From: a virus
Taxonomy: Duplodnaviria > Heunggongvirae > Uroviricota > Caudoviricetes
DNA: 56,113 nucleotides
Strand: one strand, 5' to 3'
IMG/VR virus record: IMGVR_UViG_2923334124_000002
Shown: positions 4,548 through 52,220 of the stretch, in pieces
Layout of the letters: every line of letters starts with the position of its first letter
Position numbering within the stretch: position 1 is the first letter of the stretch
Translations under genes and position numbers: made by a program
The notes under the pieces: generated by a model
What the model was told of the DNA's origin: nothing
Database searches by the model: none
What the model saw: the letters and a program-made list of their open reading frames with translations, nothing else

Positions 4548-7373
4548 TTAAACGCTCGCTACATTATACCAGGTGCCATTTATATACTTTTGAACGGGTC
4601 TGTAATAAACGCCCGCTATATTATCGGCAGAGTTAGACCCTGTATCCTGAACATTAATACCAGACAATACATGACCTGAAGGGCACTGGAAATTCCATGT
4701 TTGCCAGTTGTTCACTCCATAATATTGCTGTGAACCAAGTCGAACATCTTTCACATAACGGGAATCAAAGTTACCGTAATCCGAGGGGTTAACACGCCCT
4801 GTAATATTTATGGTTTTATTACTTTGAATGCTTCCGGAGACAAAGCGCATAACATGGACGTTATTAGCATAAACATCCAGATTACCATCGCCATTTTGTT
4901 TAAAGCCCGTGTCATTATCACCCAATACAATCGAATTACCGCCAAGAGCACTGGATGTTCCGATACCCAGTGCACCATTCAGTTGACCACCAGATAACGG
5001 CAGTGCACCAACATCTCCTGCTGAAGGCTTTCTGGTGGTGGTGTAAAATTCGGACCAGTCGGCTTCAAAACCATAACCATCACGGGCTGAACGATAAAAA
5101 ATACCGCCATTTTTATAATTAATCCGAAACTGAGCTGCAGGACAACTTCCTTCTCCCATATAAAAATGAATAATTAACGTTGATGCACCACTAATAGTTG
5201 CGTTATAGGCTCCGCTACTCCAGTTCCATCCAACTGCTTTATCATTCGCAACGGTGCTTCCTGTTTTCCCTAAGGCAAACGCACCAACATGACTTGCTTT
5301 TAATGTGATATCGGAGGAACCATCAAAAGCCACATTGCTTATTTTCCTGGCAGTTTTTAATTTTGCAGCTGTAGAAGCATTGCCGGATAGTTCACCAGAA
5401 AGGCCACCGCTGAATGTTTGTCGATTAGTCCAGGTATTCGCTGTACTGAGTAACGGTATTTTCTCCCCGCTTGTGCCGAGTTCTCGTAAACCGAGGTATT
5501 CGATAACGGCGGCAACGGTCGATTTCGCAAGAATATCCCGCCCAACTTTTGTCAGGGTTGCCAGACTGGCAACATCATTCCCCGTAAAATACGGAAACCT
5601 GTCTGCCGCAGTAGCAAGCCCGGCCAGCGCCGTCAGGGTGGCATCTTTCGGTTGCTTACCCGCAAGCGCGCTAGTCATGGTGGTCGCAAAATTCGGGTCG
5701 TTGCCCAACGCCGCAGCCAGCTCGTTCAGCGTATTCAGTGCGTCAGGCGACGAGTCCACGAGGGCAGCGATCGCAGCCATAACATAAGCCGTGCTTGCGA
5801 TTTGGGTATTATTCGTTCCCTGTCGCGCAGTTGGTGTTGTTGGCGTTCCGGTCAGTGCAGGACTATTTAAGGGCGCTTTCTTGTTCGTTTCACCCATTAC
5901 CGCCTTAACCGCTTTTGGCGTTGCCGCCAGTGACTCGGAAGTGCTGTTGGTCGCACTGCTGAGCTGTACTATCCCCTTTTTCGTCGTGCTCGCATCCTCA
6001 AGCGCCACGGCGGATGCAATATCCTCTGCCCGTTTTGCCGCTGTCTCGGCGCGCGTTGCCGCGGATTCCGCCGTACTTTTGCTCTGAGCTGCCGCCGTCG
6101 CACTGCCAGCTGCCTCTGTCGCCTTCGTGGATGCCGTCGTGGCGCTGCCCTTTGCTGCTGACGCCTGTCTGGTCGCCTCATCTTTTGAAGCAGACGCAGA
6201 TGATGCCGATGACGCCGCTGAACTGGCTGACGATGCGGCTGCCGCCTTAGAGGAAGCAGCATTGTCTGCTGAAGTCTTTGCATTTGTTTCAGAGGTTTTT
6301 GCTGCAGAAGCAGACCTCGCTGCTGCAGTGGCTTGCTCAGTGGCTTTGCCAGCCTTCGTTGTGGCTGTTGAAGCGGATGATGCGGCGCTTTCTGCCGATT
6401 TTCCGGCGGCGGTGGCACTGGCTGAGGCCTGCCCGGCACTTGTTGACGCGGCACTGGCAGATAATGCAGCCGCTGTTTTTGAACCTGCCGCAGCTGAGGC
6501 GCTCTGTCCCGCTGCTGTTTCAGAAGACTTAGCGTTCGTCTCGGACGTTTTTGCCGCCTTCGCGGAATTTCCTGCCGCCGTTGCCGAGGAAGCTGCACTA
6601 CTGGCACTTGATGATGCATTCGTTTCTGAAGATTTCGCTGCCTCTTTTGAGGCCGCCGCACCCCGTGCCGAGGTGGCAGCTTCTGACGCCTTCGTGGTCG
6701 CTGTGGATGCAGAAGTGGCTGCCGATTTTTGTGATGCTGCGGCATTCGTTTCTGACGTTTTCGCGGCACTGGCGCTGGTAGCTGCCGCGCTTTTTGATGA
6801 CTCTGCAGCAGCAGCACTTTTTGCTGCTTCACGGGCCTTTGTCGATGCCGTTCCTGCGCTGGAAGACGCTGACTGAGCCGACGACGCGGCCTGTCCGGCT
6901 GACGTGCTGGCGGCACGTGATGAGGCTGCAGCATCGGTTGCATGAGTTGCCGCCTCGCTGGCTGATGCACTGGCATCGCTGGCTGATTTTTTCGCGGCTG
7001 CCGTATTCTGTGCAACCGCGGAGGCGTTACGTGACACCTCTTCTACCATCTGCTCAAAGCGGCGCAGTGCCTCCGGTCGTACATCATCCTCCGTCATGGC
7101 ACCGAGAAAATCATTCAGCGTACCTGGTCTGGAACCTTCATAGACGGTAATGGTCCCGGCATGTGAAGGCGGAAAACCTTCAACCAGCAGGGTGACGCTG
7201 TACTGACCATGCTCAACATCCATGCTGTAACGTCCGGCTTCATCCGGATTTTCAGAGGCCACCGTGTTCACCACCACCGTGCTGCTGGTTCGTCTGGCCT
7301 TCAGCACAATGGTGCAGTTCTGTACTGGTTTTCCTGTGCCATCTTTAAGCACGCCAGAAATTTTTACTGTCAT
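4548..7373 (-). CDS. stf: side tail fiber protein (lambda Stf-like) with long Ala/Ser/Thr-rich low-complexity region
   Basis: 941 aa; N-terminus [22 protein letters not shown]... closely matches remembered lambda Stf; C-terminal about 310 aa lie inside the invertible segment. Confidence 0.85.
5478..5505. other. gix/pix-like inversion crossover site inside stf (inverted relative to 2399..2426)
   Basis: reverse complement ttatcgaatacctcggtttacgagaac matches site at 2399..2426 with about 4 mismatches. Confidence 0.6.
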
Positions 7374-39238: not shown

Positions 39239-39685
39239 GGAGTTTACTCACATCTGACAAAATCAATATAAACAGCCCCTCCGGAGAGGGGCTGGAGAGT
39301 GGCGCTATGTGCCATTGCATGGTGCCGGGTGCCTCCCGGTGAATTCAGTACCAGCACCTGAATCCGCGATTATCCCATATACCTACTCGCTGATTGCCCC
39401 TCCGCACAGGGGGATTCACCATGCCAGTTTCTTTTAACAAACTCCCCGCAAACCAGACAACAATCAACCGCCTGAATTGTGAAGTATTTAAAAATTTCTC
39501 CCGCTAACTGATACCCGGCTAACAGTCTGGCGTTTTCTTTTTCAGCAACGGGAAAGCAACAACCACCACACCCGCCACCAGCACACCGTCAGCCAGCACT
39601 GACATTATCCGGCTGCAGCAATGCCATTCACAAAAACAGTAAGCAATCACTTTTTACCGTAACCGGTGATAATCCAGATATGTAT

Positions 39686-40149: not shown

Positions 40150-40226
40150 TGGCGCGCTGTACTGGATTCGAACCAGTGACCGATTGCTTAGAAGGCAATT
40201 GCTCTGTCCGGCTGAGCTAACAACGC
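40150..40226 (-). tRNA. argO: tRNA-Arg (anticodon TCT)
   Basis: cloverleaf-compatible 77-nt sequence gcgttgttagctcagc...ccttCTaagc...ttcgaatcc...gcgcgcca read on minus strand. Confidence 0.8.
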
Positions 40227-40326: not shown

Positions 40327-40402
40327 TGGTGGCCCTTGCTGGATTTGAACCAGCGACCTGGCGATTATGAGTCGCTCGCTCTCACCACTGAGCTAAAGGG
40401 CC
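40327..40402 (-). tRNA. ileZ: tRNA-Ile2 (anticodon CAT, lysidine-type) or tRNA-Met
   Basis: ggccctttagctcagtggtgagagc...actCATaatcg...ggttcaaatcc...gggccacca; closely resembles remembered ileX/ileZ. Confidence 0.8.
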
Positions 40403-44772: not shown

Positions 44773-44928
44773 TTACTCCTCAGGTTCGTAAGCTGTGAAG
44801 ACAGCGACCTCCGTCTGGCCGGTTCGGAGTCGTACCTCGCAGAGGTCTTTCCTCGTTACCAGTGCCGTCACTATGACGGTTAAACAGATGACGATCAGGG
44901 CGATTAACATCGCCTTTTGCTGCTTCAT
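44773..44928 (-). CDS. hok: Hok-family type I toxin (HokD/RelF-like)
   Basis: MKQQKAMLIALIVICLTVIVTALVTRKDLCEVRLRTGQTEVAVFTAYEPEE is near-identical to remembered HokD. Confidence 0.85.
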   Translation of the reverse strand: MKQQKAMLIALIVICLTVIVTALVTRKDLCEVRLRTGQTEVAVFTAYEPEE

Positions 44929-45165
44929 AGCCTGCTTCCCCTTGCCTTTCGGCACGTAAGAGGCTAACCTACATTTGTGAGACATAGATTGGGCCTCAGA
45001 TTAATGTTAAGCGTCTTGCAGGACGCGAAATGTTAACTGGGGCTTTTCTCTATCTGCCTTTCAGTGTTCATGCCTGAGACAGATAGCCTCAAGCACCCGC
45101 AGCCATTCTACTTAACTCACGTCACCTCGCCAATATGAAATCAATCAGAAAGGTGATCCATAAAA

Positions 45166-48976: not shown

Positions 48977-49402
48977 TTAGTGCATCACCACAGCATTCCC
49001 TGCCGGGCCGCCGCGATTCATCTGGTCATACAAAACAACCGCTGACGCAACAAAATCATCGACATCCTTCACCAGCCGATCCCGCCGTTCGACGATCTCA
49101 CGGTAATATTCAGAACTGTGGCTGCGCATACGGGCCACCAGCAAAGGCGGCATCGCCTTTTCGATCGCCGGTAACAGAGCCTGCATTTTTTCAACAGCAT
49201 CAGGGGTGTCTTTATCCAGCCAACGGAAAATTTTCTGGGTATTACGGGCCAGGGCTTCCGGATGGCTGTCGTCATACAGTTCCGGGAACGTCATTCCCAG
49301 CTCGAAATACGCTTTGGTAATTTTCGCAGCCGGCACTTTTTCGCCGTCCGGATGCGCCCAGGCATTCATCGCCATGCGGATGTGTTCATGCTTGATTTTC
49401 AT
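48977..49402 (-). CDS. YdaT-like / CII-position early regulator
   Basis: 141 aa; immediately downstream of cro-like gene; family assignment by synteny only. Confidence 0.4.
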   Translation of the reverse strand: MKIKHEHIRMAMNAWAHPDGEKVPAAKITKAYFELGMTFPELYDDSHPEALARNTQKIFRWLDKDTPDAVEKMQALLPAIEKAMPPLLVARMRSHSSEYYREIVERRDRLVKDVDDFVASAVVLYDQMNRGGPAGNAVVMH

Positions 49403-49614
49403 GAATCATTCTTTCCTTCGTTCGAGGTGCTATCCTGCTTCTTGTAAAGTTCTGGGTTGTATTTCAATTCACCGTTAGTAATTTCATCCAGTTCCATTGC
49501 GCGAAGTTTGGGAATAACTGCTTTCCACCGCACAACAGCCACATGTGAAATTCCAAGAGCCTCAGCTACTAGTCGCTTTTTTTTGAAATAGCGCAGAACA
49601 TCATCTTTGAACAT
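49399..49614 (-). CDS. cro: Cro/DicC-like HTH repressor
   Basis: 71 aa; HTH KKKRLVAEALGISHVAVVRW; SD AGGAGAG; divergent from cI. Confidence 0.65.
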   Translation of the reverse strand: MFKDDVLRYFKKKRLVAEALGISHVAVVRWKAVIPKLRAMELDEITNGELKYNPELYKKQDSTSNEGKNDS

Positions 49615-49643: not shown

Positions 49644-49705
49644 GTAACAATAGTTACATAACAATGTCAACCATAGCAACATCACTTGGTAGTAACATTG
49701 GTTAC
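49644..49705. promoter_or_regulatory. operator region OR: palindromes GTAACAATAGTTAC (49644..49657) and GTAACATTGGTTAC (49692..49705) between cro and cI
   Basis: two 14-bp GTAAC-N4-GTTAC palindromes; third copy GGTAACTCTTGTTACC downstream of cI. Confidence 0.5.
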
Positions 49706-50380
49706 ATGAAAAACACTATCAGCGAACGTATTCGGAATCGTCGAAAAGACGTTGGATTAACCCAACAGCAGGTTGCGAAAGCAATCGGCATATCTCGTGT
49801 ATCCGTAACAAAATGGGAAAATGGCTCTTCAAAACCTGACGGTGAGAATTTGTATCTACTGTCAAAATTGCTTTCCAAATCTCCTGAATGGATTCTTTAT
49901 GGAAAGGACGGTCACGATAAAACCGATGATCTGCGTCTGAATCAGTACCCTTACATTAGTGACAACATCGCCCGGTTGCCCGTTTTAACGTGGGAACAGG
50001 CTGGTTATTGGGATATGAGTTGTCCAGTAACCAAGATTCCTGGTATTAAGAACTGGGTTGATGTCATGACAAAAACCGCTGAAAACTCTTTTTTATTGCA
50101 TGTTGAGGGAGATGCGATGACAAACTCTAACGGCCTCCCAACCATCCCCGACGGATCTACCGTGCTGATCACACCATGCTCAAGTAACATTAGAGAACTG
50201 GTGGGAAAAATAATCTTAATCCAATTGGAAGGAACGCCAAACGTAACACTAAAAAAAGTTGCGATTGACGGACCAAACATCTATCTGTTGTCACTGAATC
50301 CGCTTTACAAACCCATCGAACTGAATGGTGGTTACACCATTAAAGGTAAAGTTTCACAAATACATCAATACTTAGACTGA
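49706..50380 (+). CDS. cI: CI-type prophage repressor (HTH_XRE + S24 LexA-like peptidase domain)
   Basis: HTH QQQVAKAIGISRVSVTKWENG; C-terminal S24-like domain; ATG at 49706 abuts the operator (leaderless-type); alternative start at 49664. Confidence 0.8.
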   Translation: MKNTISERIRNRRKDVGLTQQQVAKAIGISRVSVTKWENGSSKPDGENLYLLSKLLSKSPEWILYGKDGHDKTDDLRLNQYPYISDNIARLPVLTWEQAGYWDMSCPVTKIPGIKNWVDVMTKTAENSFLLHVEGDAMTNSNGLPTIPDGSTVLITPCSSNIRELVGKIILIQLEGTPNVTLKKVAIDGPNIYLLSLNPLYKPIELNGGYTIKGKVSQIHQYLD

Positions 50381-50384
50381 GTCA

Positions 50385-50412
50385 GAACCCGCATTCATTG
50401 CGGGTTTTTTAT
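50385..50412 (+). terminator. rho-independent terminator after cI
   Basis: aacccgcattcattgcgggtt + TTTTTT. Confidence 0.6.
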
Positions 50413-50453
50413 GCCCTCAAATGTACCTTTTGCAACATTGTATTGACTCGAAA

Positions 50454-50469
50454 GGTAACTCTTGTTACC
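50454..50469. promoter_or_regulatory. operator OL-like palindrome GGTAACTCTTGTTACC near a TTGACT -35-like hexamer (early-left promoter region)
   Basis: palindrome of same family as OR sites. Confidence 0.45.
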
Positions 50470-50652
50470 TTAACAACATACCAACCCACCCCGCCCCACA
50501 GAACGCCGGGCAATACTTCGAGTTACCAAGCAGTGGTCAGGGGGTAAGTAGCCAGCCCGAGGCGTAAGAACATGACGGCAGGGTTCAACTTTAATAACTA
50601 TGCAGCAGGTTTTTGTTCCGCTCCCCCGGCGTTAAGGGGAAATGAGGTCAGC

Positions 50653-50808
50653 ATGGATACTATCGATCTTGGCAACAGCGAATCTCTGGTATGTGGCGTG
50701 TTCCCCAACCAGGACGGCACGTTCACCGCAATGACGTATACCAAAAGCAAAACGTTTAAAACCGAAAATGGTGCCCGTCGCTGGCTGGAAAGAAACTCAG
50801 GTGAGTGA
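50653..50808 (+). CDS. ydfA: YdfA-like small protein (51 aa)
   Basis: SD GAGG; synteny with dicB operon. Confidence 0.5.
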   Translation: MDTIDLGNSESLVCGVFPNQDGTFTAMTYTKSKTFKTENGARRWLERNSGE

Positions 50809-50809
50809 T

Positions 50810-50938
50810 ATGGATTTCGACACAATCATGGAAAAGGCTTACGAAGAATACTTCGAAGGCCTTGCCGAAGGCGAAGAAGCTCTCAGCTTCAGTGAGTTTA
50901 AACAGGCGCTTTCCAGCTCGGCAAAATCTAACGGCTGA
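50810..50938 (+). CDS. ydfB: YdfB-like small acidic protein (42 aa)
   Basis: MDFDTIMEKAYEEYFEGLAEGEEALSFSEFKQALSSSAKSNG; below track threshold, found by manual translation. Confidence 0.45.
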   Translation: MDFDTIMEKAYEEYFEGLAEGEEALSFSEFKQALSSSAKSNG

Positions 50939-50967
50939 TAAGCGAAGCAGCACCGCGAGGAATCAGT

Positions 50968-51186
50968 ATGCAGAAACGAGAACCCGTCATCATCGCGCCA
51001 GACTATACCGATGATGAACTTTATGAGTGGATGCGCCAGAAAATTAATGCAGCGCAGGATCTGAAATGGGCCAATGAAGCCAGGACTAAGCAGGCTGAAA
51101 ATCTGTCCGCTCTGGAGCAGGATATCACCAGGCTGGAAAAAGCAGCGGCATTAAGCATTGCCAGAATGGTTACATACCCGCGTTAA
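50968..51186 (+). CDS. ydfC: YdfC-like protein (72 aa)
   Basis: ORF; synteny. Confidence 0.5.
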   Translation: MQKREPVIIAPDYTDDELYEWMRQKINAAQDLKWANEARTKQAENLSALEQDITRLEKAAALSIARMVTYPR

Positions 51187-51524
51187 TAGCTAACCAACGA
51201 AGCTAAGGTTGGTAATTAAGGAGTTCTCCACGGGTCAGGTGGAGTGCGTGCGCCGGACACGGGTGAACATCCGGCACTGACAGTTTACTGAAAGGATATG
51301 TCCCTGAAAAGTCAGGGCATAAAGCGAAAGCGCACGGCGAAATTGGTCTCTCTGTACGGTGTCGTTAAATTTAGTTCGACCGTGCGCTTCCGGTTGTGGC
51401 ACTCCGCGAAATGGCGCGGCGGTAAGTATGGCGGGGTTATTCCTTCCTCCGTTGAGGACACCGGGTTGTCAGGTTGACCATACGCTTAAGTGACAACTCC
51501 GCTGCAACGCCCTCTGTTATCAAT

Positions 51525-51582
51525 TTTCTGGTGACGTTTGGCGGTATCAGTTTTACTCCGTGACTGCTCTGCCGCCCTTTTT
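51525..51582 (+). ncRNA. dicF: DicF sRNA (ftsZ-targeting, processed from the dicB operon transcript)
   Basis: tttctggtgacgtttggcggtatcagttttactccgtgactgctctgccgcccttttt matches remembered DicF including terminator-like 3' end; preceded by about 340 nt ORF-free structured leader and followed by dicB. Confidence 0.6.
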
Positions 51583-51751
51583 AAAGTGAATTTTGTGATG
51601 TGGTGAATGCGGCTGAGCGCACGCGGAACAGTTAAAACCAAAAACAGTGTTATGGGTGGATTCTCTGTATCCGGCGTTAATTGTTAACTGGTTAACGTCA
51701 CCTGGAGGCACCAGGCACCGCATCACAAAATTCATTGTTGAGGACGCGATA

Positions 51752-51940
51752 ATGGAAACGTTATTACCAAACGTTAATACGTCTGAAGGTTGTTTTGAAA
51801 TTGGTGTCAATATCAGTAACCCTGTATTTACTGAAGATGCCATTAACAAGAGAAAACACGAACGGGAGCTATTAAATAAAATATGCATTCTTTCAATGCT
51901 GGCCCGTTTACGTCCGATACAAAAAGGATGCTGGCAATGA
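51752..51940 (+). CDS. dicB: cell division inhibitor DicB
   Basis: 62 aa METLLPNVNTSEGCFEIGVNISNPVFTEDAINKRKHERELLNKICILSMLARLRPIQKGCWQ, near-identical to remembered DicB. Confidence 0.8.
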   Translation: METLLPNVNTSEGCFEIGVNISNPVFTEDAINKRKHERELLNKICILSMLARLRPIQKGCWQ

Positions 51941-52128
51941 ATACAGCATTTGCACTTGTTCTGACAGTTTTTCTTGTTTCCGGAGAGCCAGTTGATATTG
52001 CAGTCAGTGTTCACAGGACAATGCAGGAGTGTGTGACTGCAGCAACCGAACAGAAAATTCCCGGTAACTGTTACCCGGTCGATAAAGTTATTCACCAGGA
52101 TAATAACGAAATCCCGGCAGGTCTTTAA
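51937..52128 (+). CDS. ydfD: YdfD (small membrane/lysis-associated protein)
   Basis: 63 aa MNTAFALVLTVFLVSGEP...; ATGA overlap with dicB stop. Confidence 0.65.
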   Translation: MNTAFALVLTVFLVSGEPVDIAVSVHRTMQECVTAATEQKIPGNCYPVDKVIHQDNNEIPAGL

Positions 52129-52220
52129 AACAGTTCCGTAATAAATATCCGGTTTCATTCTTATATGCCAGCAATGGCAGGGATTTGTTCACCCTTAAAT
52201 CTGTAATGAGGTAAAACAAA

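Follow-up and report, generated by a model that had tools for sequence, protein, structure and literature searches.

Which operon follows the cI-like repressor gene of this prophage, and does it work by the mechanism described for Escherichia coli K-12? The analysed window, a stretch of 56,113 nt, matches at 100% identity a lambdoid prophage of ~54 kb that is inserted in ompW of E. coli ST131. This prophage is Qin-like, largely complete and nearly full length, and carries IS21 inserted in lom as well as tail-fibre pseudogenes. On the + strand, the repressor gene is followed by ydfABC, a non-coding leader, dicF, dicB and ydfD; next come the genes for an exonuclease, xis and int, in gene-for-gene agreement with the K-12 prophage Qin (dicA-ydfABC-dicF-dicB-ydfD-ydfE..intQ; b1571-b1577). 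The series ydfA-ydfB-ydfC-dicF-dicB-ydfD shares the strand and orientation of the prophage repressor gene and lies downstream of it. Nucleotide identity to K-12 is 90-100% from ~40 nt upstream of ydfA onwards, and all five ORFs (ydfA, ydfB, ydfC, dicB and ydfD) are intact (Table 1).

Table 1. Positions of the elements of the locus within the window, with their supporting matches
Feature	Position	Strand	Details
cI-like repressor	49664..50380	+	238 aa; Pfam HTH_3 3.8e-17, Peptidase_S24 1.1e-16
Terminator-like hairpin and T-run	50386..50411	+	AACCCGC-ATTCATT-GCGGGTT-TTTTT, directly after the repressor stop; read from sequence
Putative PL-type promoter	50443..50471	+	TTGACT 50443-50448, 17-nt spacer, TACCTT 50466-50471; hexamers read by eye
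Operator palindrome	50455-50468	+	GTAACTCTTGTTAC; overlaps the putative promoter
ydfA	50653..50808	+	51 aa; Pfam DUF1391 E 8.8e-28; 49/51 aa identical to K-12 YdfA; RefSeq annotation in EC958
ydfB	50810..50938	+	42 aa; 42/42 aa identical to K-12 YdfB; RefSeq annotation
ydfC	50968..51186	+	72 aa; 69/72 aa identical to K-12 YdfC; RefSeq annotation
Non-coding leader of the DicF precursor	51187..51524	+	338 nt; 90% identical to K-12
Conserved 21-bp helix, predicted RNase III site	51318..51398	+	Arms 51318-51340 with 51376-51398; RNAalifold, 47 leader sequences
DicF sRNA	51525..51577	+	53 nt; Rfam RF00039; 53/53 identical to K-12 dicF b1574; terminator T-run on to 51582
Structured spacer, dicB 5' leader	51585..51736	+	Fold z -4.53; distant relative of Rfam STnc100
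dicB, cell-division inhibitor	51752..51940	+	62 aa; Pfam PF05358 E 9.9e-37; 54/62 aa identical to K-12 DicB
ydfD	51937..52128	+	63 aa; DUF1482, Pfam E 3.7e-25; 59/63 aa identical to K-12 YdfD

Each element named in the original prediction was found in its place or at most 1-2 nt away. The ydfA/B/C-like ORFs that it had placed behind cI match their K-12 counterparts at between 42/42 and 69/72 residues, and the identity to K-12 dicF and dicB on which it hinged amounts to 53/53 nt and 54/62 residues, respectively. DicB matches Pfam PF05358 over its full length (residues 1-62 of 62; 124.9 bits, gathering score 27); its eight substitutions relative to K-12 are scattered, with four in the C-terminal stretch (RPIQKGCWQ here, RLMPKGCAQ in K-12). 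The ATGA overlap between the dicB stop and the ydfD start was read from the sequence at 51937-51940, as anticipated. The designation as an early-left operon is also apt, given the position on the same strand after cI, another operator palindrome, the third, just upstream, and the recombination, xis and int genes downstream.

The operon is thus dicBF as known from prophage Qin of K-12, which has been characterised previously (Faubladier 1990; Balasubramanian 2016; Ragunathan 2023), and nothing contradicts this identification. There is nothing new in the operon itself, since it is carried by most complete E. coli genomes, with a match to its 1840-bp region in 4769/5426 of them. Many ST131 genomes carry this region at 100% identity, with ydfA/ydfB/ydfC/dicB/ydfD annotated by RefSeq, and isolated phages such as Tritos and mEp460_ev081 have it as well; in one of these phages, DicF is annotated. 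Overall, the locus is very probably dicBF, serving a Qin-like lambdoid prophage as its early-left (PL-type) operon, with a mechanism as in K-12.

DicF and the predicted processing of its precursor

The DicF sequence matches Rfam RF00039 with 76.7 bits (gathering score 48, E 3e-15) over model positions 1-52 of 52, and its 5' seed is that of K-12 DicF without change. In the 3' part, the Rfam alignment shows a stem-loop followed by CCCTTTTT; alignment and sequence together reveal an intrinsic terminator with the stem GGCGGUA..UGCCGCC and then CUUUUU, in line with the terminator-like 3' end that had been proposed. This terminator was not listed by a simple terminator scanner, because its hairpin contains an internal loop.

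Upstream of DicF, a 340-nt ORF-free structured leader had been described, a claim that stands in part. The leader measures 338 nt and has no conserved ORF, though a 59-aa ATG ORF is present (51298-51477); this candidate coding gene was rejected as not conserved. This rests on 40 relatives, out of 47 distinct aligned leader sequences, among which the length of the longest ORF varies from 8 to 60 aa. The fold of the whole leader is not significantly better than that of shuffles (z -1.64), so that structural support extends only to a single long helix of 21 bp. This helix is strongly conserved: RNAalifold showed 45-47 of 47 sequences to be paired at every position. In K-12, a DicF species of 190 nt owes its 5' end to RNase III (bioRxiv 10.1101/2023.04.14.536235); an RNA of this length with its 3' end at 51577 would begin at 51388, within the 3' arm of the helix. 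The helix is therefore predicted to be the cleavage site from which the 190-nt precursor arises.

In K-12, DicF and DicB block division and DicB protects against ManYZ-using phages (PMC5069750; bioRxiv 10.1101/2023.04.14.536235). By itself, DicF filaments cells and also regulates ftsZ, manX, xylR and pykA (PMC5069750). Under standard conditions, the operon of K-12 is kept tightly repressed, and no transcript past DicF into dicB was detected in uninduced cells (bioRxiv 10.1101/2023.04.14.536235); despite repression, DicF is made in stationary phase and the promoter is spontaneously on in ~1% of cells. The division inhibition and altered phage susceptibility attributed to this operon in the original prediction are thus published for K-12, and their transfer to the ST131 prophage copy appears reasonable because DicF is identical and DicB is 87% identical. 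MinC-dependent inhibition of division has been published only for the DicB of K-12, and by analogy would apply to DicB here.

With processing, targets and phenotypes taken from the K-12 experiments, the following sequence of events can be proposed. The operon would be off as long as the prophage repressor is bound to the promoter-overlapping operator, which lies just behind the repressor gene. Derepression would give a polycistronic RNA from ~50478 through ydfA, ydfB and ydfC, in which RNase III would cut the conserved leader helix to release a ~190-nt precursor; RNase E would then trim this precursor to the 53-nt DicF, with the intrinsic terminator as its 3' end. Together with Hfq, DicF would pair with the ftsZ, manX, xylR and pykA mRNAs. 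Transcripts running past the DicF terminator would contain a structured leader and then dicB and ydfD, translationally coupled via the ATGA. DicB would bring MinC to the septum, whereby FtsZ-ring function and ManYZ-dependent phage entry would be blocked, and YdfD would act as a lysis protein. Output of dicB would depend on read-through of the DicF terminator, given that uninduced K-12 shows no transcript beyond it. The likeness to K-12 predicts that the ST131 prophage carries a ready-made cassette for division inhibition and phage exclusion.

The same terminator raises another possibility, rather unlikely in our judgement, namely that the DicF sequence works chiefly as an attenuator or terminator within the operon, limiting the toxic dicB and ydfD, with the trans-acting sRNA as a by-product. 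Both the intrinsic terminator at the end of DicF and the lack of detected transcripts beyond it in uninduced K-12 fit such a role, as does the arrangement in other phages, in which different sRNA-like sequences (KilS/DicF-like, with other seeds) have their terminator at the same position, ahead of this spacer and of a toxic gene. However, the 5' seed of DicF is perfectly conserved here, and in K-12 DicF alone filaments cells and regulates its four targets. The two roles are moreover compatible with each other.

The structured spacer ahead of dicB

DicF and dicB are separated by a spacer of 174 nt in all, which the original prediction had not mentioned. It contains a structured element that is closed by a 21-bp helix (51585-51605 paired with 51716-51736) around four internal helices and that ends 3 nt 5' of the dicB Shine-Dalgarno sequence GAGGA (51740-51744). 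Across 27 diverse copies, the structure comprises 41 pairs in five helices, with 90.2% of cells paired as against 35-40% in slid controls. Changes on both sides were found for 19/41 pairs, with 0/500 shuffles as good, and the covariation score is 0.24 compared with 0.05-0.07 for controls. By covariation, this structure is shared with STnc100 (RF02076), to which the spacer matches with 38.7 bits (E 2e-6), below the gathering score of 47 for membership; homologous spacers gave 43.8 (Rac-SA53) and 32.9 (Shigella phage 75/02). The spacer is 99.4% identical to K-12, whereas its flanks are 90-93% identical. This better conservation of a non-coding spacer than of its coding flanks argues for selection.

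The same element is found in other phages before small genes, many of them toxic, namely kilR, terB/tciA and several unknown ORFs. Its hosts are lambdoid, P1-like and Klebsiella phages, where it mostly lies just after terminator-ended sRNA genes or tRNA genes. This recurrence of the conserved DicF-dicB structured RNA before other phage toxic genes connects the leaders of dicB and kilR with the sRNAs STnc100 and PasD. Tentatively, and at less than even chances, the element can be regarded as a portable and unannotated structured 5'-leader, a terminator-less branch of STnc100/PasD, in which cleavage of the closing helix by RNase III would determine how stable the mRNA of the toxic gene is or how well it is translated. 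Such a cut would part a stable RNA from the mRNA and leave the latter with a structured 5' end. Table S1 of Gordon 2017 lists a low-count site, 'dicF-dicB 1649470', with 26 reads in the rnc mutant versus 0 in the wild type, which maps within the spacer at about 51613; the 'kilR-sieB 1418510' site of the same table maps just upstream of KilS, outside the Rac spacer. These sites are suggestive only, because the table contains very many low-count sites.

It seems improbable that the element is an independent sRNA that binds Hfq and belongs to the STnc100/PasD family, and not a cis-acting leader of dicB. Its sub-threshold STnc100 match spans the full model, a bona fide STnc100 elsewhere in the window aligns to the spacer core, and at some IMG/VR loci a seed-like stretch and a terminator come after this core. 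Yet no terminator follows the element here, nor does one before kilR and terB; the 3' hairpin of the STnc100 model falls on the dicB start codon, with poor scores; and the end of the element is always ~15-45 nt before the Shine-Dalgarno sequence and ATG.

Control of the operon

How would the operon be switched on? The palindrome GTAAC-N4-GTTAC occurs exactly three times in 56 kb (49644, 49692 and 50455), as against 0.03 copies expected; two copies lie in the cI/cro region and the third just upstream of the operon. A consensus promoter scan reported no + strand promoter between cI and ydfA, the hexamers (TACCTT) being below threshold; the PL-type designation is based on the operator together with a weak -10. 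We infer from these elements that the promoter overlaps the third operator copy and is repressed by this prophage's repressor. Homology to phages with other immunity regions begins at ~50474-50489, just after the operator/promoter site. Behind the repressor gene, the stretch 50381-50413 gives weak Rfam matches, in which the terminator parts of Trp_leader and isrK are aligned. A put- or nut-like antitermination RNA in the 5' UTR (50455-50652), considered as a possible cause of read-through at the DicF terminator, was rejected for lack of support: this UTR folds no better than shuffles (z +0.70) and has no Rfam match, and its distant BLAST matches are to Qin-like phages only, not to HK022.

The N-terminal HTH of the repressor shows 54% identity to DicA residues 7-76 (tblastn with DicA), and its C-terminal LexA/S24-type domain has Ala in place of the catalytic Ser (VEGDAMT versus VEGNSMT in lambda). 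In the alignment to lambda cI, this Ala is opposite Ser149, whereas the Ala-Gly site and Lys192 are kept; of the Ser-Lys dyad and Ala-Gly site that characterise self-cleaving S24 proteins, Ser is therefore absent. SOS inducibility, assumed at first from the S24 domain, was dropped because of this replacement. Nine repressor homologues of 98-100% identity retain GDAM and distant homologues have GDSM; judged from these sequences, the GDAM repressor is a conserved form and not a private lesion.

Qin control, comprising a promoter under DicA and the antirepressor Rem, was not recovered here, a difference that concerns the control module and not the operon body. The DNA of promoter and operator cannot be aligned with that of K-12, no Rem homologue or Rem-like antirepressor was found in the 56,113-nt window, and the search for LexA boxes gave none that was convincing. 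The Qin derepression signal cannot be carried over to this prophage, because the repressor is unlike DicA and without the S24 Ser, and because no Rem was found. Given the Ser-to-Ala change at the self-cleavage site, control of this operon may differ from that in lambda and also from that in Qin; this conserved replacement, like the recurring DicF-dicB RNA, could interest specialists.

It is highly improbable that the operon is a silent relic, intact in sequence and never expressed, with a repressor that cannot be inactivated, no read-through at DicF and no physiological effect: the lost nucleophilic Ser, the lack of a Rem homologue and of a convincing LexA box, the IS21 and tail-fibre pseudogene damage and the tight repression in K-12 would suit it, whereas the five intact ORFs, a region 100% conserved across many genomes, a spacer conserved above its coding flanks, the conserved GDAM repressor, and K-12 DicF and promoter activity despite repression all argue against it.

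Comparison with known systems

The closest relative is Qin of K-12, with the same genes in the same order, identical DicF, proteins of 87-100% identity, and a leader and spacer of 90% and 99.4% identity, respectively. The two differ in the immunity region, where Qin has DicA (135 aa, HTH only) and Rem, whereas this prophage has its 238-aa HTH and S24 repressor and other operators; homology begins only ~40 nt before ydfA. Downstream, Qin carries ydfE, intQ and an IS2 remnant as pseudogenes, in contrast to the intact 823-aa exonuclease, xis and int found here, and Qin is cryptic in K-12, whereas the present host prophage is nearly full length.

The PL leader of lambda, whose RNase III site lies between nutL and N, and its kil region offer a functional analogy only, with no sequence similarity. 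Both systems would have a cI-repressed early-left transcript, a long RNase III-type helix immediately 5' of the RBS of a small gene, and an early division inhibitor after induction. Lambda has no DicF, and no N, nut or put-like element was identified here.

The kilS-kilR module of K-12 Rac, Rac-like prophages and Stx phages resembles the present locus in having a terminator-ended small RNA, the ~150-nt structured spacer, a small FtsZ-directed division inhibitor and recombination genes. KilS is a weak DicF match (41 bits), and its spacer is 84-91% identical to the spacer here. Unlike in the dicBF operon, ydfABC are missing upstream, KilS has another 5' seed, and KilR is unrelated in sequence to DicB.

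The likeness to STnc100 and the related PasD sRNAs of EPEC/EHEC prophages concerns the spacer only. Although the spacer scores below threshold, has no 3' terminator, lies in the early-left and not the late region, and is directly followed by a coding gene, it shares with them the GGUG/CACC closing helix, the GGUGAAU junction, the CACCnGGAGGCACCnGGCACC hairpin and compensatory changes.

The operon and its prophage

The original prediction of a dicB-type early-left operon with DicF is supported, and every element that it named is present. The ydfA/B/C-like ORFs placed after cI were identified by Pfam or RefSeq labels and by identity to K-12. The DicF match with its terminator-like 3' end covers the whole RF00039 model, terminator stem and U-run included, and all 53 positions equal K-12 dicF (b1574). 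The proposed refuting check, alignment to K-12 dicF and dicB, found identity for both (53/53 nt and 54/62 aa), and the ATGA overlap of dicB and ydfD is confirmed, the stop and start codons sharing 51937-51940. Homology to the cryptic K-12 prophage Qin is unbroken from ~40 nt upstream of ydfA to past ydfD, whereas DNA from the repressor gene to ~40 nt before ydfA did not align with Qin.

Features of the operon and prophage, and of loci fetched for comparison (window coordinates unless another sequence is named)
Feature	Position	Strand	Evidence or remark
Prophage	~2000-56113 (EC958 1436717-1490886)		integrated in ompW; ompW fragment at far end
STnc100	39264-39453	-	Rfam; full score, 132 bits
Two tRNA genes	40153-40226, 40330-40402	-	downstream of Q/methylase region
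sok antitoxin RNA	44923-45098	-	beside hokD
YdaT/cII-position gene	48977-49402	-	PR-type operon; replication genes further on
cro-like gene	49399-49614	-	PR-type operon
Repressor gene	49664-50380	+	HTH_3 and Peptidase_S24
Palindromes 1 and 2	49644-49657, 49692-49705		cro/cI intergenic region
Palindrome 3	50455-50468		75 nt past repressor stop codon and its terminator-like hairpin
Candidate promoter	50443-50448, 50466-50471		TTGACT, 17 nt, TACCTT; read by eye
ydfA	50653-50808	+	Pfam DUF1391 8.8e-28; K-12 identity 49/51 aa
ydfB	50810-50938	+	RefSeq annotation; K-12 identity 42/42 aa
ydfC	50968-51186	+	RefSeq annotation; K-12 identity 69/72 aa
Leader	51187-51524	+	338 nt, non-coding; K-12 identity 90.3% nt
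Leader helix	51318-51340 with 51376-51398		21 pairs
DicF	51525-51577	+	Rfam RF00039 76.7 bits (gathering 48); K-12 identity 53/53 nt
Spacer element	51585-51736	+	closing helix 51585-51605 with 51716-51736
dicB	51752-51940	+	Pfam DicB 9.9e-37; K-12 identity 54/62 aa
ydfD	51937-52128	+	Pfam DUF1482 3.7e-25; K-12 identity 59/63 aa
Spacer copies	L003 2496-2685; L004 2505-2703; L005 ~2474-2640; L006 ~2474-2640; L007 ~2474-2660
DicF-like small RNA	L003 2452-2506		terminator-ended; before structured spacer
K-12 kilS	L129 1106-1203		DicF-like small RNA before spacer

The 1840 bases at 50381-52220 match many complete genomes of the E. coli ST131 lineage (EC958, JJ1887 and others) at 100%, and RefSeq labels ydfA/DUF1391, ydfB, ydfC, dicB and ydfD in them. 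In EC958, the region is part of a ~54 kb prophage bounded by an ompW fragment beside trpA and by intact ompW. This prophage contains replication, Q, lysis, head and tail genes; its lom is broken by the IS21-family element ISEc12, and several tail-fibre genes are pseudogenes. The cargo includes iraM, queH and a SASA-family esterase. With the window as oriented here, the minus strand carries the rightward (PR-type) operon; the plus strand is used from the repressor gene onward, and the right end encodes an 823-aa exonuclease, xis and int.

A match was found in 4769 of 5426 complete E. coli genomes, with at least 80% of the region in 2136, and isolated phages, Tritos and mEp460_ev081 among them, also carry the operon. 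Balasubramanian et al. (PMC5069750) had earlier described the same flanking genes in several strains other than K-12, one of them uropathogenic CFT073, and more than one copy in O157:H7. The operon is of low interest in itself because it is already known and annotated in identical public genomes; what may be new is the spacer between DicF and dicB.

Control of the operon

The body of the operon being essentially identical, the published account of Qin (PMC5069750; bioRxiv 10.1101/2023.04.14.536235) is the best supported here. The operon would be repressed at a PL-type promoter, from which a polycistronic transcript would arise. DicF would be matured by RNase III and then RNase E, and transcription would stop at the terminator of DicF, although some would read through into dicB and ydfD. 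DicF would target ftsZ, manX and other mRNAs, and DicB with MinC would act on FtsZ and ManYZ.

The 56-kb window contains the palindrome GTAAC-N4-GTTAC exactly three times, where chance predicts 0.03, and the three copies are likely operators for this immunity type. The third overlaps the candidate promoter, which is absent from the list returned by a consensus promoter scan. Phages with other immunity regions share homology from ~50474-50489 onward, right after this candidate. The early-left assignment under the prophage repressor is supported by a likely operator copy, a putative PL promoter and a homology boundary.

The repressor itself is not DicA: kinship is confined to the HTH (54% identity to DicA residues 7-76), and a C-terminal Peptidase_S24 domain is present in addition. 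LexA and lambda cI cleave themselves by a Ser-Lys dyad. The Ala-Gly cleavage site and catalytic Lys of lambda cI are kept, whereas the position of the nucleophilic Ser149 is occupied by Ala (VEGDAMT versus VEGNSMT, residues ~147-153). Ala was found there in 9/9 close homologues (98-100% identical; fetched loci, on other contigs), and Ser in more distant relatives. Since the Ser of the dyad is replaced, the repressor is predicted from its sequence to be non-cleavable. Neither a homologue of the Qin antirepressor Rem nor a convincing LexA box was found in the window. Spontaneous and stress-linked switching has been described for Qin (PMC5069750; bioRxiv 10.1101/2023.04.14.536235), but because the repressor differs and these two elements were not found, such switching cannot simply be assumed for this copy.

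The DicF leader

The stretch between ydfC and DicF had been described as a 340-nt ORF-free structured leader. Its length is 338 nt, and it contains possible ORFs of 44-59 aa, but none is conserved: the longest ATG ORF ranged from 8 to 60 aa among the 40 relatives listed, out of 47 distinct leader sequences (IMG/VR and K-12). Folding the entire leader to minimum energy gave no significant gain over shuffles (z -1.64), whereas the 47-sequence consensus fold contains one long helix, each of whose pairs forms in 45-47 of the 47. The 190-nt DicF precursor of K-12 owes its 5' end to RNase III, and RNase E then makes the 53-nt DicF (Ragunathan et al., bioRxiv 10.1101/2023.04.14.536235). A 190-nt RNA with its 3' end at 51577 would start at 51388, within the 3' arm of the helix. 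The term "structured" thus holds for the part of the leader that matters, the conserved helix at the expected precursor start.

The spacer between DicF and dicB

The 174 nt from the DicF terminator to dicB, overlooked in the original prediction, are 99.4% identical to K-12, higher than the leader (90%) or dicB (93% nt). They fold much better than shuffled sequence (z -4.53), and a perfect 21-bp closing helix stops 3 nt short of the dicB Shine-Dalgarno. With relaxed thresholds, the spacer matches the full-length Rfam STnc100 model, below the gathering threshold (38.7 bits against 47; E 2e-6). In an alignment of 27 diverse copies, the STnc100 of the window among them, with a five-helix structure, 90.2% of cells hold a standard pair, against 35-40% in controls with 3' partners slid by 1-3 columns. 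Both sides changed in 19/41 pairs (slid, 4-12), and the covariation score was 0.24 (slid, 0.05-0.07); 0/500 column shuffles reached either the percentage paired or the covariation score of the real alignment. Given these pairing, covariation and shuffle tests, the spacer is a real conserved RNA structure.

In Rac-SA53 and Shigella Stx phages, relatives of 80-91% identity lie immediately before kilR. In the P1-like phages P7 and D6, a core (70-82% identical) stands between tRNA genes and terB/tciA. The element also occurs in a Klebsiella phage, and its carriers include lambdoid phages. A 22-base core pattern found at least 120 loci in IMG/VR. In most of the 111 usable copies, the ORF that comes first downstream encodes a DicB variant, and in others it encodes KilR, a TerB-like protein or one of several unknown small proteins; one subgroup has no downstream ORF, with a seed-like stretch and terminator instead. 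L009, L011, L029 and ~20 similar IMG/VR loci share the core with a different middle part; ~12 nt past the core come a seed of the GUGUAGUC type and an intrinsic terminator, which gives the architecture of an STnc100-like sRNA. Several loci, including the Klebsiella phage, share a conserved motif, CACCGAGCCTGAAGTGGTGAAAAGACAGGC, ~50-70 nt upstream.

At loci of the kilR type and several more, canonical DicF is replaced before the spacer by a related sequence that likewise ends in a terminator and differs in its 5' part. The Rac-SA53 sequence matches DicF weakly (41 bits), and its counterpart in K-12 Rac carries the annotation KilS, an sRNA (Bar et al. 2021, PMC8175672). DicF and KilS appear to be members of a single sRNA family with different seeds, placed in one modular layout. 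Because the upstream small RNA differs between loci, this is a recurring module with exchangeable parts: a small RNA with terminator, a structured spacer and a division inhibitor. The spacer usually follows a terminator-ended, DicF-like small RNA whose seed part varies from phage to phage, as in many IMG/VR loci (e.g. L004, L012, L030, L045). Matches of 87-98% to E. coli DicF-dicB spacer/PL leader stretches also occur in Aeromonas phage AP1 (MT713136.1, 249906-250152) and Actinobacillus phage vB_Apl-pPE4 (PP818812.1, ~5840-6456), which suggests E. coli prophage-derived sequence or mis-assigned hosts in these two non-enterobacterial records.

Table S1 of a published RNase III survey (Gordon et al. 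2017, PMC5371410) includes a low-count RNase III-dependent site labelled 'dicF-dicB' at K-12 1649470, which corresponds to window ~51613, within the spacer. That label refers to the known DicF site, which has, however, been mapped upstream of DicF. A second low-count site in the same table, 1418510, precedes KilS in Rac by 8 nt. As the table holds very many such low-count sites, 1649470 is only suggestive. One possibility is that the spacer belongs to the STnc100 superfamily and acts as a portable, structured leader ahead of phage toxic genes. As a working interpretation, it would serve as a processing and 5'-stabilising leader for a toxic gene, much like the RNase III site in the lambda N leader.
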